This document shows, in pieces, positions 7,655 to 56,284 of a DNA stretch of 64,000 bases. A program made the translations under genes and the position numbers. Under the pieces are notes generated by a model that saw only the letters and a program-made list of their open reading frames with translations, did no database searches and was not told where the DNA came from. This DNA is from Escherichia phage vB_EcoM_PTE-Eco05. The first letter of the stretch is position 1, and each line of letters starts with the position of its first letter. Location: the sequence record PQ306573.1; one strand, written 5' to 3'.

Positions 7655-7704
7655 GTTTACTTCTCCTCTAGTTGTGTTACTATAGACCTGTCAACTAGAG
7701 GAGA
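7655..7704 (+). promoter_or_regulatory. early promoter (GTTTAC, 17 nt, TG-extended TACTAT) inside a perfect 13-bp inverted repeat that contains the regB SD
   Basis: TCTCCTCTAGTTG (7662-7674) / CAACTAGAGGAGA (7692-7704); -10 lies in the 17-nt loop. Confidence 0.6.
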
Positions 7705-7711
7705 AATCAAA

Positions 7712-8170
7712 ATGACTATCAATTCGGATGTTTTTATCCGCCGTAATAAACTCCGTCGAATCTTTGAAACGGAGTTCCGCAAAATAAATGCCGGTATAAA
7801 AGATGCTGCAAAGTCTCTTGGACTACCAGGCTTTCATATCAAGTATTCTCAACATCTCTTAGATCGTGCCATCCAGAGAGAAATAGATGAGAATTACGTT
7901 TTTGAATTATTTCATAAAGTAAAAAATCACGTTAAAGAAGTTGCAGAATTTTTATCAATGCCGGCACGTCCGGATGTTGATGAAGATTTTGTCGAAGGTG
8001 TCGAATATCGCCCAGGCCGTTTAGAAATAACTGACGGAAATCTTTGGTTAGGACTTACAGTTTGTCGCGAAAATCCGGCATTCAAAATGAAGACTCTTCA
8101 ATGTAGAATGGCTATTATTAACAGTAAACGACTACCAGGAAAAGCTTCTAAAGCAGTGATTAAAATCTAG
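7712..8170 (+). CDS. regB: RegB endoribonuclease
   Basis: MTINSDVFIRRNKLRR...HLLDRAIQREIDE...LQCRMAIINSKRLPGKASKAVIK close to T4 RegB. Confidence 0.93.
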   Translation: MTINSDVFIRRNKLRRIFETEFRKINAGIKDAAKSLGLPGFHIKYSQHLLDRAIQREIDENYVFELFHKVKNHVKEVAEFLSMPARPDVDEDFVEGVEYRPGRLEITDGNLWLGLTVCRENPAFKMKTLQCRMAIINSKRLPGKASKAVIKI

Positions 8171-8178
8171 AGGTAAAC

Positions 8179-8721
8179 ATGAGAAAAGCACTACTCGCTG
8201 GTCTATTTGCTCTTTCGTTATCAGCACATAGCTCCGAGCATACTTTTAGTAATGTCCAACTCGATAACTTGAATTATGCTTATCAGTTTGGGGAACAGTT
8301 TTCTAAGGACGGAAAATTTAAAACGCATGAAAATATGCATAAGAAAGGACTTGGATACATAATGGCCGCAATACTATGGCAGGAATCATCTGCCGGTATT
8401 AATCTTAAAGATAAGAAAGGTCACCATGCGTATGGAATGTTCCAAAATTATCTACCAACAATGAGGGCAAGAATTAACCAGCTTGGTTATAATATGTCTG
8501 ATGCCCAAATTAAGAAAATGCTATCTAAGCGGTCTAATTCAGCCAGATGGGCTTATATCGAATTTTCTTATTGGTTAAATATACATAATGGGGATATAAG
8601 AAAAGCTATATCCTCATATAATGCAGGATGGAAGACAAGTGCTGGAAGTAAATATGCTTCTGAAGTCCTAGAAAAGGCTAATTACCTTAAATCAAATAAA
8701 CTACTGGAAATAAAAGAATGA
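8179..8721 (+). CDS. secreted lytic-transglycosylase-like protein
   Basis: signal peptide MRKALLAGLFALSLSAHS; WQESS...YGMFQ resembles SLT-domain motifs. Confidence 0.55.
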   Translation: MRKALLAGLFALSLSAHSSEHTFSNVQLDNLNYAYQFGEQFSKDGKFKTHENMHKKGLGYIMAAILWQESSAGINLKDKKGHHAYGMFQNYLPTMRARINQLGYNMSDAQIKKMLSKRSNSARWAYIEFSYWLNIHNGDIRKAISSYNAGWKTSAGSKYASEVLEKANYLKSNKLLEIKE

Positions 8722-9065
8722 CCAAAATGTTGGCTTTAATAGTTGGCTTGGTTTCATTTAACGCTCTTGCTAATACTACATATACTGATGTAACGGAGTA
8801 TACAAACAGAACGGCGTCTGATTATTGTGGTAAAAGTCGAGAGTGTAAAGTAGATTTTTCACAAAAATTGTTATATGCGTATAAAGACGGAGAAAAAGAT
8901 GGGGTGTCTAGTAGGTTCAAGGCGTCTACCTTAATTAAAAGATACTATAAAAAATGGCAAATATTAGAATGCTCGGTGGCGGAACCTAAAGATAAGGCAG
9001 CATGCAATTCTATGGTGGACCGTCTAGTTGACTCTTATACTAGAGGACTTGCAGCAAGTGATTAA
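8718..9065 (+). CDS. small secreted protein
   Basis: N-terminal signal-like MTKMLALIVGLVSFNALA; 115 aa. Confidence 0.5.
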   Translation: MTKMLALIVGLVSFNALANTTYTDVTEYTNRTASDYCGKSRECKVDFSQKLLYAYKDGEKDGVSSRFKASTLIKRYYKKWQILECSVAEPKDKAACNSMVDRLVDSYTRGLAASD

Positions 9066-9522
9066 AAACTATATCAAGGGCGATATTGTCGCCCTGTTTT
9101 CTAAAGGTAATAATATTGCTCACGGGTGTAATTGTTTTCATACAATGGGCGCTGGTGTGGCAGGACAATTAGCAAAGGCTTATCCAAAAATTCTGGAAGC
9201 CGATAAACTTCAAACCGAATTCGGAGACAAGTCTAAACTCGGGACTTATTCGGTTTATGAAAAATATTTTAAGACCCATAAAGCTTATTGCTTTAATCTT
9301 TATACACAGTTTGAGCCGGGACCTAATTTTGAGTACTCTGCTTTAATGAATTGTATAATAGAATTAAATGAATTCGGAAAGAATAAGATAACAAAGCCTG
9401 TAATTTATATGCCAAGAATTGGTGCAGGTATTGGTGGTGGAAACTGGGATGTCATCGAAGAGATTTTAGATACGTATTCCACTAAACTAGAAATTGTGAT
9501 TGTTGATTGGGAACCTAAATGA
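9028..9522 (+). CDS. macro-domain (ADP-ribose-binding/processing) protein
   Basis: GCNCFHTMGAGVAGQ and PRIGAGIGGGNW resemble macro-domain Gly-rich loops; track start is TTG and true start is uncertain. Confidence 0.7.
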   Translation: MTLILEDLQQVIKNYIKGDIVALFSKGNNIAHGCNCFHTMGAGVAGQLAKAYPKILEADKLQTEFGDKSKLGTYSVYEKYFKTHKAYCFNLYTQFEPGPNFEYSALMNCIIELNEFGKNKITKPVIYMPRIGAGIGGGNWDVIEEILDTYSTKLEIVIVDWEPK

Positions 9523-9701
9523 AATTAACTAAAGAAGAGAAAGCTAAACTGTTCGAACTTATCCATGACCTATTGGATGAACAAGCAGCCACCAATGCGT
9601 ACGATGAATATGCTCCTTTAACAGATGAAGAATATCACGCATTGATGGAATCATTTGACAGGAAAGAACAAGAACTCATTGACTACGTGAATTCACTATA
9701 A
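9519..9701 (+). CDS. hypothetical acidic protein
   Basis: 60-aa ORF. Confidence 0.45.
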   Translation: MKLTKEEKAKLFELIHDLLDEQAATNAYDEYAPLTDEEYHALMESFDRKEQELIDYVNSL

Positions 9702-9710
9702 GGGACTCTT

Positions 9711-10292
9711 ATGGCTAGTTTAATTTTTACATATGCCGCTATGAACGCTGGTAAGTCTGCTTCATTACTTACCGCCGCACATAACTATAAAGAACGTGGC
9801 ATGGGTGTATTAGTTCTTAAACCGGCTATTGATACTCGCGATTCAAAAGGTGAAATAGTCTCTCGTATTGGTATTCGTCAGGACGCCAATATAATTACAA
9901 AAGACATGGATATCTTTGAATTCTATAAATGGGCTGCAGCACAAAAGGATATTCACTGCGTATTTGTTGACGAAGCTCAGTTCTTAACTACTGAAAAGGT
10001 GTATCAACTTAGTCGTATTGTTGACGTATACAATGTGCCGGTAATGGCATACGGACTACGAACAGATTTTAAAGGTAATCTATTTGAAGGTTCTCAAGCA
10101 TTAATGGCTATTGCCGATAAGCTTGTTGAACTTAAAGGTGTCTGTCATTGTGGTAAAAAGGCCACAATGGTAGCTAGAGTCACGGAAGACGGACTTCCAA
10201 TTACGGATGGCAGTCAAATTGAAATTGGTGATACCGATAGATATGTGTCATTATGCCGGAAGCATTGGAATGATTTGACAGGGTTGTTATAA
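9711..10292 (+). CDS. tk: thymidine kinase
   Basis: 193 aa; P-loop NAGKSASLL, VDEAQF and Zn-ribbon CHCGKKAT...LCRKH. Confidence 0.95.
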   Translation: MASLIFTYAAMNAGKSASLLTAAHNYKERGMGVLVLKPAIDTRDSKGEIVSRIGIRQDANIITKDMDIFEFYKWAAAQKDIHCVFVDEAQFLTTEKVYQLSRIVDVYNVPVMAYGLRTDFKGNLFEGSQALMAIADKLVELKGVCHCGKKATMVARVTEDGLPITDGSQIEIGDTDRYVSLCRKHWNDLTGLL

Positions 10293-10319
10293 ATACTAAT
10301 ATCTAACCAAGAGGTATAT

Positions 10320-49069: not shown

Positions 49070-49720
49070 ATGATTTATTACATGCACAAAAACGCACCAT
49101 TTAAATATGGTAAATTTCCTAATGCACAATGTTATAATATAACGCCGAATGAAAATAATAACGGATACCATATTGGTGTAATTTTTGTAATTGTTAAAGA
49201 TAACGAAATTGTTGCCTGGGCAGATTTTAAAGGTACAACATATGATGTTAATCCTGTGCCTTTCACATATTACAATATAATGGATTTGGCATATGATTAT
49301 AATTGGTTTAATCATGACACGTTGGCTCATATTGAAGGTGTAGGATTTGACATCTCTTATTCTAGCTATTCATTATGTCCTATGAGCCGAGCTCACGGTA
49401 AAGATGTATCATATCTTTCAATTCGGAAACGTGTAAACTTCAAACGCAGTACAGAGTATGTTGGTGGACTCTTTGTTAAAGATAATAAAATAACCCGTAT
49501 TAGTTATCCTTTAAGTGTAGGTCAAAAAGATGTTGATGTTGATTTAGACTTAACTGAAAGTAACATTAATCGTATTGCTTCTGTATATTTTGATATCGAT
49601 GAAAAAATTGTAGTGTGTGGATACGAATTACCACCTGAAGAAAAGGCTGAAACAATTGAAGTCGAATTAGAAATTTCTGTTGATGACCAAATATTTAATG
49701 CATTTATGAATCGAGGTTAA
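49070..49720 (+). CDS. hypothetical protein
   Basis: ATG 49070. Confidence 0.5.
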   Translation: MIYYMHKNAPFKYGKFPNAQCYNITPNENNNGYHIGVIFVIVKDNEIVAWADFKGTTYDVNPVPFTYYNIMDLAYDYNWFNHDTLAHIEGVGFDISYSSYSLCPMSRAHGKDVSYLSIRKRVNFKRSTEYVGGLFVKDNKITRISYPLSVGQKDVDVDLDLTESNINRIASVYFDIDEKIVVCGYELPPEEKAETIEVELEISVDDQIFNAFMNRG

Positions 49721-54137: not shown

Positions 54138-54719
54138 ATGATATGTCAATCTGAACTTCAAGAACGCGAATATCTCGCAGCACTAATTGATGATAAATTC
54201 ACTAAACAAGAACAAAACATTCTCTGGGCTTGCACCGATTCTAAGGAAGACCCGGATTTCCACTATGAATTAGACCATCTTGTTCGTAAGCATATGACTT
54301 CTACAGTACCAGTAGAACTCTACCGCGGTGTAACTCCAGAAGAAGTAGAACGTCTTTCACTTCTTTCTGTTGGATGCCATTGGTCTCCTGGACGAGTAAC
54401 ATCGTTCACAACTGATTTCAGTACAGCTCGTCAATTCTCTGGGAGTTGGGAATATCAGACGTATACTATTCTTAGTCTCAGGAATGCTCCATTCATTTTT
54501 GATTACTACCAAAACATGGTTAACATTGTACTCGCCGGAAAGAACCCTAAGCATGTTATAGAAGAAAAGCGTGTTGACGTCCTAGATATGATTGAATCTG
54601 AACAAGAGTACATGGTCTCAGGTATCTCTAGATTTGAGATTGTGGAAATTGAAGACTTAGAATATGACCCTTTATCTCGATTATACAAAATCATTCATTT
54701 GAAAATGTTGAATTTTTAG
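54138..54719 (+). CDS. ADP-ribosyltransferase, ModA/ModB family (paralogue 1)
   Basis: R-S-E type motifs: LYRG, SFTTDFSTA, EQEYMV; tandem paralogue follows. Confidence 0.75.
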   Translation: MICQSELQEREYLAALIDDKFTKQEQNILWACTDSKEDPDFHYELDHLVRKHMTSTVPVELYRGVTPEEVERLSLLSVGCHWSPGRVTSFTTDFSTARQFSGSWEYQTYTILSLRNAPFIFDYYQNMVNIVLAGKNPKHVIEEKRVDVLDMIESEQEYMVSGISRFEIVEIEDLEYDPLSRLYKIIHLKMLNF

Positions 54720-54776: not shown

Positions 54777-55385
54777 ATGTTTATGCCGTATAACGAGTGT
54801 GAAATTGAAGAAATGGTTCGTCGTGCTCAAAACCCCGAATATCAAGATGTATTGCAGTACGAAATTGATAGTCAATTCAACGATAATGAACAAAGCATCC
54901 TTTGGCAGTGTATGGAAAACAAGCCAGACTGTATTCAACAGGAGTTAAGTTCAATCGTTCGTAGAAATTGGACGTCTTCTGTTCCTGAGACAATGTATCG
55001 TGGAATCTCTAAGAAAACTATGGCCACACTCGATGATAAAGGCATTGGTAGTATTATTAAATTTGACAGAGTAATGAGCTTCAGCCCAGTGTTCGGTGTA
55101 GCACGTAACTTTGCTTCATATAATTTTTACGGAACATTTAATATGTTCTGCATCAAAGATGCGCCATTTGCTTTCAACTTCCGTGAACATATGCTTAACA
55201 TGATTCTGGCTGCGCCATCTTGTGAGTTCAATGGAGCTTTCCCTGAAGCGACAAGACGGTCTAATGCTAGACTTATATCTGACGAATGTGAATTTATGCT
55301 CCCTATAGGGACTACACTGCGTGTAGATTCTATTATTCAAGATGGACGTTATACAATCTGGAATCTGTCTATTGTCAGTTACTGA
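54777..55385 (+). CDS. ADP-ribosyltransferase, ModA/ModB family (paralogue 2)
   Basis: MYRG, SFSPVFGVA, ECEFM. Confidence 0.75.
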   Translation: MFMPYNECEIEEMVRRAQNPEYQDVLQYEIDSQFNDNEQSILWQCMENKPDCIQQELSSIVRRNWTSSVPETMYRGISKKTMATLDDKGIGSIIKFDRVMSFSPVFGVARNFASYNFYGTFNMFCIKDAPFAFNFREHMLNMILAAPSCEFNGAFPEATRRSNARLISDECEFMLPIGTTLRVDSIIQDGRYTIWNLSIVSY

Positions 55386-55537: not shown

Positions 55538-56284
55538 ATGTTATCAAATAATAAAATTAACAAAATCAATCGTCGTCTTGACCACACCAGAGCTTCTGCG
55601 AAGAGACGCTCTAAGGATTTTAACTTAGACTTTAATTACCTTAAAAACATTCTTGATCAAAAGGTCTGCGCTTACTCAGGTGAATCTTTTAATAACTCTG
55701 TTGAAGGTGAGAAATTATCCTTAGAACGTTTTAATAATGATATAGGCTACATTAAAGGTAATGTTATCCCGGTTAAGAAAAAATATAACACGGCTCGTTC
55801 TGATTTAACATTAGAAGAACTTATTGAGAAACGTGATGCCATTGCAAGACGTATCGCTAATCCTTCTGCCCGTAAAGTAGAGAAACTTAATCTCGATGAG
55901 AAGAAATGGGCCCAAATTAAAAAGGTTTATGGTACTATTTTAAAAATCCGAGCAAAACGTGAAAATCGTGTTAAGCATATGGCGAACATGATGAAAAATC
56001 AACCTTTATCTAACGAATCTAAACTTAGAATTGTTGCTTTGAAAGCACGCATTAATGGCTCGCATCAAGCAGAAGGCCATGAACTTACTAAACTCAACGT
56101 TCTTCTTAAAGGTTCTGACTGGAAAACTAAAACTAAATTAACTGACGCTGAATCGCTTTTCGATACATATGATAAAGTTATCCAAGGTCTGCAACGTTTT
56201 GAAAAGATTGGTTTCATTGGTAAATTAAAATTGAAACGCGGCTTACCACTTAGCGCATCATTATTCCAACTGATTAAAGGTTAA
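55538..56284 (+). CDS. hypothetical basic protein (T4 srd position)
   Basis: 248-aa ORF between mod genes and dda. Confidence 0.4.
   Translation: MLSNNKINKINRRLDHTRASAKRRSKDFNLDFNYLKNILDQKVCAYSGESFNNSVEGEKLSLERFNNDIGYIKGNVIPVKKKYNTARSDLTLEELIEKRDAIARRIANPSARKVEKLNLDEKKWAQIKKVYGTILKIRAKRENRVKHMANMMKNQPLSNESKLRIVALKARINGSHQAEGHELTKLNVLLKGSDWKTKTKLTDAESLFDTYDKVIQGLQRFEKIGFIGKLKLKRGLPLSASLFQLIKG

Follow-up and report, generated by a model that had tools for sequence, protein, structure and literature searches.

DarG, TARG1 and SCO6735 are macrodomain proteins that all take off thymidine-linked ADP-ribose (PMC9411070). A preprint of November 2025 describing HIDEN-SEQ reported tk.4 as the single significant hit of a T4 transposon library on a DarTG2 host, showed that a clean tk.4 knock-out renders T4 DarTG2-sensitive, noted the structural similarity of Tk.4 to Mycobacterium tuberculosis DarG, and renamed the gene adfM, for anti-DarT factor Macrodomain (bioRxiv 10.1101/2025.11.20.689424). 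The name AdfM was also given, in a 2026 Cell Reports paper, to gp104 of phage PhiKZ, which removes DarT2 marks from DNA in vitro (PMC13309987). Here, we describe the tk.4 gene found in a stretch of 64,000 nucleotides (the window) from Escherichia phage vB_EcoM_PTE-Eco05 (PQ306573.1).

A described protein that offers a catalytic analogy is SCO6735 of Streptomyces coelicolor, which protects against DarT. It carries Gln85 at the position of the DarG and TARG1 lysine, cleaves thymidine-linked ADP-ribose, is dead as a Q85A mutant, and needs Asn27 and Gly128 (PMC9411070). Mutation of the asparagine lowers activity in SCO6735 and DarG (PMC9411070) as well as in PhiKZ AdfM (PMC13309987).

tk.4 is a conserved T-even gene whose macrodomain/A1pp label is about 20 years old. 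A 2006 comparative paper already recorded an A1pp domain in tk.4 orthologues, the RB69 record annotates the gene as "phosphatase; contains A1pp phosphatase motif", and DarTG2 counter-defence was assigned to the T4 orthologue in 2025. The gene and its macrodomain/anti-defence reading are thus known, and the glutamine-type site, the lineage separation and the hairpin proposed below are small additions. A sequence-only reading of the window had suggested a macro-domain protein and a plausible anti-defence factor at this locus, to be tested against DarT-like systems, a role that has been shown genetically for the T4 orthologue, which is 84% identical (10.1101/2025.11.20.689424). Reading raw sequence can therefore correctly flag an anti-defence gene; the finding itself adds little to the biology.

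Identity, start codon and fold of Tk.4

The gene under study is the following:

9058..9522, + strand: tk.4/adfM coding sequence, GTG start, TGA stop, 154 amino acids (aa), a single macrodomain (from RB69/T4 identity, the Pfam Macro match and the structure model)

Positions 7700-10300 of the window share 98.8% DNA identity with Escherichia phage RB69, a Mosigvirus, and newer isolates reach up to 99.3%; by its sequence, the source phage is an RB69-like T-even phage. The RB69 gene order at this locus is regB, vs.1, vs, tk.4, tk.2, tk, and the open reading frame (ORF) studied here corresponds to tk.4. Its product is 99% identical to RB69 Tk.4 and 84% identical to T4 Tk.4 over 153 aa, in a gap-free alignment with 24 substitutions. 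With full-length similarity, a shared vs-tk.4-tk.2-tk order and an aligned start codon, the gene is, on sequence comparison, the RB69-type orthologue of T4 tk.4 (adfM). The two products share the start position, the neighbours (vs on the 5' side, tk.2/tk on the 3' side) and the invariant N25, YTQ and glycine loops; they differ at residue 127, which is G in the window protein and K in T4.

The program-made ORF at 9028-9522 (+ strand, 164 aa, TTG start) is present in the window, and its translation holds both HTMGAGVAGQ and RIGAGIGGGNW. The sequence-only reading had called its start uncertain, as the TTG lies inside the upstream gene, and the alignments settle this doubt: the true start of tk.4 is not the TTG at 9028 but the GTG at 9058, 10 codons inside the ORF. 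In a three-way DNA alignment of the window, RB69 and T4, the ATG of T4 tk.4 sits exactly at the GTG of the window. Directly 5' of this ATG, T4 has an in-frame TAG, so the T4 ORF cannot extend further 5'. The RB69 annotation places the tk.4 start at the same position, and all aligned homologues, from dozens of relatives, start with M/V-I-x-x at this codon. A ribosome-binding sequence precedes it and is also kept in most T4-like relatives having vs upstream of tk.4:

9043..9047, + strand: Shine-Dalgarno GAGGA, 10 nucleotides (nt) 5' of the GTG, within the vs 3' end; the window, RB69 and T4 all conserve it

The present analysis establishes the orthology, start codon, fold, class and conserved residues of Tk.4. 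A hidden Markov model search, proposed by the sequence-only reading as a check of its macro-domain claim, matched Pfam Macro (PF01661) over profile positions 2-117 of 118 and, with 28.2 bits and E 1.9e-6, exceeded the gathering score of 22; the predicted structure and conserved loops bear the claim out as well. PHROG 335 also matches the window protein (1e-66). A single-sequence search of PDB sequences finds BT1257, Poa1p, SCO6735, TARG1 and DarG, and a 50-sequence family profile used against the same sequences recovers BT1257 (E 5e-17), TARG1 (2e-15), SCO6735 (3.5e-14) and M. tuberculosis DarG (4e-13). The AlphaFold2 model, built from an input alignment of database homologues only, reached a predicted local distance difference test (pLDDT) score of 96.2 and a predicted template modelling (pTM) score of 0.91, and its leading Foldseek matches were TARG1, Poa1p, BT1257 and DarG. 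The nearest structural neighbours are TARG1, DarG, Poa1p, BT1257 and SCO6735, whereas MacroD, PARG and the viral macrodomains are not among them. Taken together, the profile match, the structure model and the conserved loops place Tk.4 far beyond chance as a macrodomain, and within the TARG1/ALC1-like class.

A glutamine at the catalytic lysine position

Four conserved elements of the macrodomain can be located in the gene:

9121..9132, + strand: motif H22-G23-C24-N25, in which N25 never varies within the family and matches the Asn conserved in macrodomains (SCO6735 N27, PhiKZ gp104 N23)
9139..9168, + strand: glycine-rich loop 1, HTMGAGVAGQ (H28-Q37); aligns with TARG1 CRMGAGIAVL and DarG VGVMGKGIAL
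9301..9309, + strand: Y82-T83-Q84, invariant; Q84 stands at the catalytic Lys position of TARG1 (K84) and DarG (FPTK)
9415..9447, + strand: glycine-rich loop 2, phosphate-binding, RIGAGIGGGNW (R120-W130); aligns with BT1257 PRIGCGLAGGKW, SCO6735 PRIGCGLAGGTW and TARG1 PRIGCGLDRLQW

The alignment of the two glycine-rich loops with those of TARG1, DarG and BT1257 predicts that Tk.4 binds ADP-ribose. N25, Y82-T83-Q84, G122, G124 and W130 are invariant in 50/50 aligned homologues. In the profile alignment to TARG1, Q84 falls on the catalytic K84 and G126 on D125; where human TARG1/OARD1 (4j5r) has a Lys84/Asp125 dyad, Tk.4 has Gln84/Gly126. In an hhalign comparison with an alignment of three DarG macrodomains and PhiKZ gp104 (probability 98.6%, E 1.4e-15), LYTQ was matched to the invariant FPTK, and N25 to the conserved Asn. 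Since Q84 is aligned both on the FPTK lysine and on TARG1 K84, the Tk.4 family is without the lysine used by DarG and TARG1. BT1257 likewise has a glutamine at the Q84 position in the profile alignment, while Poa1p has a serine where the Tk.4 family has Gln84 (N-terminal alignment stretch).

Q84, N25 and G126-G128 are conserved in the Tk.4 family, which gives it the glutamine, the supporting asparagine and the phosphate-loop glycine of SCO6735-like Gln-type hydrolases. It should be noted that the equivalence to SCO6735 Q85/N27/G128 runs via TARG1 K84, the DarG lysine and a published statement (PMC9411070), as the direct alignment to SCO6735 (5e3b) covers only the C-terminal phosphate-binding loop PRIGCGLAGGTW.

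Probable counter-defence against DarTG2 and competing explanations

We consider it likely that Tk.4 is a stand-alone macrodomain enzyme of the TARG1/DarG/SCO6735 class that removes DarT2-placed ADP-ribose from phage DNA, in other words an "orphan antitoxin". In the proposed mechanism, the DarT2 toxin of a host DarTG2 system would ADP-ribosylate thymidines in single-stranded phage DNA and block replication. Tk.4 would bind the ADP-ribose via its two glycine-rich loops and hydrolyse the thymidine-ribose bond, so that the DNA is restored. As an orphan antitoxin, it would probably follow the SCO6735 scheme rather than the lysine-based scheme of DarG and TARG1, with Q84 as the essential glutamine, held by the conserved N25 and positioning the distal ribose. 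Both the enzymatic removal of thymidine-linked ADP-ribose by Tk.4 and this role of Q84 are what we infer, the former from the phenotype of the T4 knock-out and from what DarG, TARG1 and SCO6735 do, the latter by analogy.

Several points weigh against this proposal. The catalytic lysine of DarG and TARG1 is absent, and activity rests on the SCO6735 analogy. The genetic protection result was obtained with T4, not with the RB69-like allele, and comes from a preprint, in which the enzymatic mechanism was itself derived from structural similarity only (10.1101/2025.11.20.689424). Poa1p, a phosphatase, is structurally as close to Tk.4 as DarG is. Furthermore, SCO6735 inhibits DarT also without catalysis, so a non-enzymatic contribution is possible (PMC9411070).

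The resemblance to Poa1p leads to another explanation, in which Tk.4 would be a metabolite-processing macrodomain, either a Poa1p-like ADP-ribose-1''-phosphate phosphatase or an O-acetyl-ADP-ribose deacetylase, acting on small molecules derived from nicotinamide adenine dinucleotide (NAD) and not on DNA. PHROG 335 bears the label "phosphatase", and JGI calls relatives "O-acetyl-ADP-ribose deacetylase"; moreover, among the residues mutated in deposited structures of yeast Poa1p (6lfq), an ADP-ribose-1''-phosphate phosphatase, H23 and S30 align with Tk.4 H22 and T29 (the third mutated residue is F152). The phosphatase/A1pp labels are, however, products of domain transfer and not of assays, and the only phenotype reported for the T4 orthologue is DarTG2-specific. 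Neither E. coli nor T4 is known to have the Tpt1-type step of tRNA splicing from which Appr>p arises, and no 2'-phosphate is left behind by the RNA repair of T4, which both count against such a function. We regard it as improbable for the main role of the protein, and side activities of Tk.4 on small ADP-ribose derivatives may exist. We give very little credence to the view that Tk.4 erases the phage's own Alt/ModA/ModB marks, or the ModB "RNAylation", from host proteins and so times host take-over. The phage does carry its own ADP-ribosyltransferases, as the sequence-only reading stated: both modA and modB are present in the window, and they share with tk.4 the pre-replicative part of the genome. 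Yet Alt, ModA and ModB modify arginine, and we know of no TARG1/DarG-class macrodomain that cleaves Arg-ADP-ribose. The family is found in about 2,800 records of many unrelated phage groups and as a stand-alone gene in diverse bacteria too, and it therefore does not track T4-type transferases. The T4 screen, again, found a DarTG2-specific requirement. Nothing specific was found to support the link that the sequence-only reading drew from tk.4 to these transferases or to NAD-derived signals.

A third explanation extends the orphan antitoxin to a broader nucleic-acid de-ADP-ribosylase, which would also protect phage RNA (uracil-linked ADP-ribose) or DNA against other base-ADP-ribosylating toxins yet to be found, DarTG2 being one target of several. 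TARG1, DarG and SCO6735 act on RNA as well, where they reverse uracil-linked ADP-ribose, SCO6735 more efficiently than DarG (PMC13036486), and the Tk.4 family has the glutamine of SCO6735. The stand-alone bacterial relatives, which have no detected darT2 homologue within 4 kb (see below), would fit a general protective role. On the other hand, no uracil- or RNA-directed bacterial toxin tied to phage defence was found in the literature examined, and CmdT modifies adenine, a modification described as irreversible. We judge this account unlikely as the leading explanation, but a broader nucleic-acid role in addition to the DarTG2 role is plausible, and by analogy the Tk.4 family may have a wider substrate range, e.g., uracil-linked ADP-ribose on RNA.

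Relationship to DarG, SCO6735 and PhiKZ AdfM

Tk.4 was compared with the DarG structures of T. aquaticus (5m31/5m3e), M. tuberculosis (5m3i) and T. africanus (7omu). DarG has its catalytic lysine in FPTK, where Tk.4 has Gln84. DarG also possesses a C-terminal DarT-binding domain, and its models span about 330-340 positions; Tk.4, with 154 aa, is without that domain. The DarG models match only through their macrodomain part: the PADLOC model with E 8.7e-9 at positions 4-145 of 329, and the NCBIfam model at positions 4-148 of 338, where the score of 31.8 bits stays far below the cut-off of 250. There is no darT next to tk.4, whose neighbours are vs and tk.2, and a tblastn search of the window with P. 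aeruginosa DarT2 gave nothing at E <= 1, although a very divergent DarT could be missed with this one query. A captured DarG was considered and rejected, given the weak DarG matches restricted to the macrodomain part, the missing lysine and the lack of a detected DarT2 both in the window and beside the 80 bacterial relatives described below.

SCO6735 resembles Tk.4 in being a stand-alone TARG1-like macrodomain with a glutamine at the catalytic position, a supporting asparagine and a PRIGxGxxGGxW loop. The sequences are only distantly related (profile E 3.5e-14; Foldseek 22% identity). SCO6735 has a longer mobile loop with Lys89/Lys94 for DNA binding, a feature that Tk.4 may or may not share. 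SCO6735 is also a cellular gene reported to lie under a RecA-NDp-type promoter (PMC9411070), whereas tk.4 is a phage gene. Bacteroides thetaiotaomicron BT1257 (2fg1/2afc), the best profile match, has been deposited only as a protein of unknown function.

PhiKZ gp104 shares with Tk.4 that it is a phage-encoded single macrodomain countering DarTG2 (PMC13309987 for gp104; genetics for T4). It is, however, closely related to DarG, with E 9e-25 to the M. tuberculosis protein, and has the FPTK lysine that Tk.4 is without; it is also imported into a phage nucleus, a structure that T-even phages do not have. BLASTP of gp104 against the window protein gave a 23-residue local match only. PhiKZ AdfM was therefore rejected as a Tk.4 orthologue, being DarG-like with FPTK and sharing only this short match.

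Family matches were found in about 2,800 of 50,697 phage records, including T4-like, Felix-O1-like and Vi1-like phages as well as others that infect Pseudomonas, Vibrio, Acinetobacter or even Bacillus. The 80 bacterial relatives, at 35-45% identity, have a single domain and a length of about 151 aa, and their hosts include Rhodobacterales, Verrucomicrobiota, Planctomycetota, Desulfobacterales and Bacteroidota, among others; N-x-Y-T-Q is present in 73/80. No DarT2 homologue was found within 4 kb of these 80 genes, in a search with one DarT2 query that very divergent toxins could escape. These patterns suggest that T4-type AdfM belongs to a widespread, separate family of stand-alone Gln-type macrodomains with an invariant N-x-Y-T-Q. 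Taken jointly, two points can be put forward only tentatively, and may well not both hold: that the T4-type AdfM is separate from the PhiKZ/DarG lineage, so that one name covers unrelated lineages, and that tk.4 contains a conserved hairpin (see below). A catalytic Gln in T4-type and Lys in PhiKZ-type AdfM would matter for mechanism, inhibitor design and naming.

In Acinetobacter phage Liucustia (H56) and Vibrio phages Ceto (H61) and Bennett (H64), which are unrelated phages, a Tk.4-like gene adjoins genes annotated as nicotinamide phosphoribosyltransferase or ribose-phosphate pyrophosphokinase. Such neighbours hint that the Tk.4-like gene is linked to NAD/ADP-ribose salvage modules of phages.

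A hairpin early in the tk.4 coding sequence

A terminator scan detected a hairpin near the beginning of tk.4:

9077..9095, + strand: hairpin with an 8-bp stem and a 3-nt loop, AGGGCGAT-ATT-GTCGCCCT, then GTTTTCT; tk.4 codons 7-13

It folds with about -13 kcal/mol and is followed by a U-rich tail reaching to about 9103. The same hairpin is found in T4, and 18/38 distinct T4-like tk.4 5' ends keep a stem of 6-8 bp. When folded, most of these 18 sequences reach about -12 to -13 kcal/mol (two reach about -5 to -6), and the other 20/38 range from 0 to about -7 kcal/mol. The hairpin occurs in T4, RB69-like, Dhakavirus-like, RB49-like and other T4-like phages and is absent from other tk.4 lineages.

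Within the 18 hairpin-bearing sequences, the stem positions change together. In 14 of them Gly8/Ala12 are written GGC/GCC, while 4 have Gly8/Ser12, written GGA/TCC or GGA/TCT. The outer pair takes two forms, AAG...CTN and AAA...TTR, and the top pair three, U.G, U-A and C-G. The third codon positions of the stem are fixed, while the loop codon and Leu13 use six codons each, and GGC is never used for Gly17, which lies outside the stem. In one relative with the hairpin, the gene upstream is an unrelated one, and the hairpin thus goes with tk.4 and not with vs. Covariation over all 38 distinct sequences was weak (71% of cells paired versus 75% in a control slid by -3 columns); with the hairpin confined to certain clades, the case rests on the within-clade pattern. 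An Rfam scan of 8600-9800 gave nothing meaningful. The compensatory changes suggest that several T4-like lineages maintain the hairpin. A role as a regulatory RNA element is conceivable, for instance as a leaky or partial terminator or as an element of stability or translation, setting the expression of tk.4 and the downstream tk. Sequestration of the Shine-Dalgarno was also considered: a fold of the region in the window pairs it with the U-run after the hairpin (z -2.9), but the fold predicted for T4 is without that outer pairing and the idea was dropped.

In Citrobacter phage Moon (L004, 49-69), another gene lies between vs and tk.4, and the depositors annotated a terminator that directly follows vs and falls within the beginning of that gene. 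The tk.4 of Moon is without the hairpin.

Genomic context and other ADP-ribosylation genes

The sequence-only reading had placed the ORF in the regB-tk interval, and it does lie between these genes:

7712-8170: regB (Pfam REGB_T4, E 6e-69)
8179-8721: vs.1 (RB69 gene order)
8718..9065, + strand: vs (valyl-tRNA synthetase modifier), upstream neighbour of tk.4 (PHROG 1256, E 2e-34; RB69 annotation)
9519..9701, + strand: tk.2 (DUF7438), downstream neighbour of tk.4 (Pfam DUF7438, E 1e-16; RB69 annotation)
9711-10292: tk (RB69 annotation)

The end of vs and the start of tk.4 overlap by 8 nt (GTGATTAA), and the tk.4 stop and the tk.2 start overlap by 4 nt (ATGA). tk.4 is part of a tightly packed, co-directional run, regB-vs.1-vs-tk.4-tk.2-tk, and such overlaps are typical of co-translated T-even genes. 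A sigma-70 promoter scan gave sites no more numerous than expected by chance. T4 has two extra small genes (tk.3 and tk.1) between tk.4 and tk, which the window does not have. Many close relatives (records H8-H23) match 7700-10300 in two pieces, over about 3,016 bp versus 2,601 bp in the window; this indicates that some 415 bp have been inserted in them, with about 2 extra small hypothetical genes that are not in the window or in RB69.

The vs and vs.1 products both begin with an apparent Sec signal peptide (vs, MTKMLALIVGLVSFNALA|NTT; vs.1, MRKALLAGLFALSLSAHS). This would fit a periplasmic role for the SLT-like vs.1 and is odd for vs as a "valyl-tRNA synthetase modifier". In the HIDEN-SEQ preprint, vs was the T4 gene most depleted in minimal medium (bioRxiv 10.1101/2025.11.20.689424).

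Other genes related to ADP-ribosylation or to DarT resistance, together with srd, were located elsewhere in the window:

49082-49717, + strand: gp61.2 (AdfA) homologue, 98% identical to RB69, with Arg at residue 164
54138-54716, + strand: modB, 95% identical to RB69
54783-55382, + strand: modA, 93.5% identical to RB69
55538-56281, + strand: srd, 100% identical to RB69

The RB69 allele of AdfA has been reported to be inactive against DarT1, and T4 has a His at residue 164 (PMC11825919). This RB69-like phage appears to have an intact anti-DarTG2 factor, while the AdfA it encodes is of the RB69 type, for which a lack of activity against DarTG1 has been reported. The window does not reach AdfN (30.3), and AdfA alone does not tell whether the phage would be sensitive to DarTG1.

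The annotation of tk.4 is inconsistent among deposited genomes. For IME341, the coding sequence has been given a start that is 87 nt too far 3'; for ATK47, no tk.4 feature is annotated despite a 98.7% match; and one "T4" record splits tk.4 into two pieces, each called a macro-domain protein, perhaps because of a frameshift (the records concerned are NC_055742.1, L005; NC_055708.1, H27; and OL964745.1, H34). A T2 RIL-seq preprint labels tk.4 as a "putative thymidine kinase".

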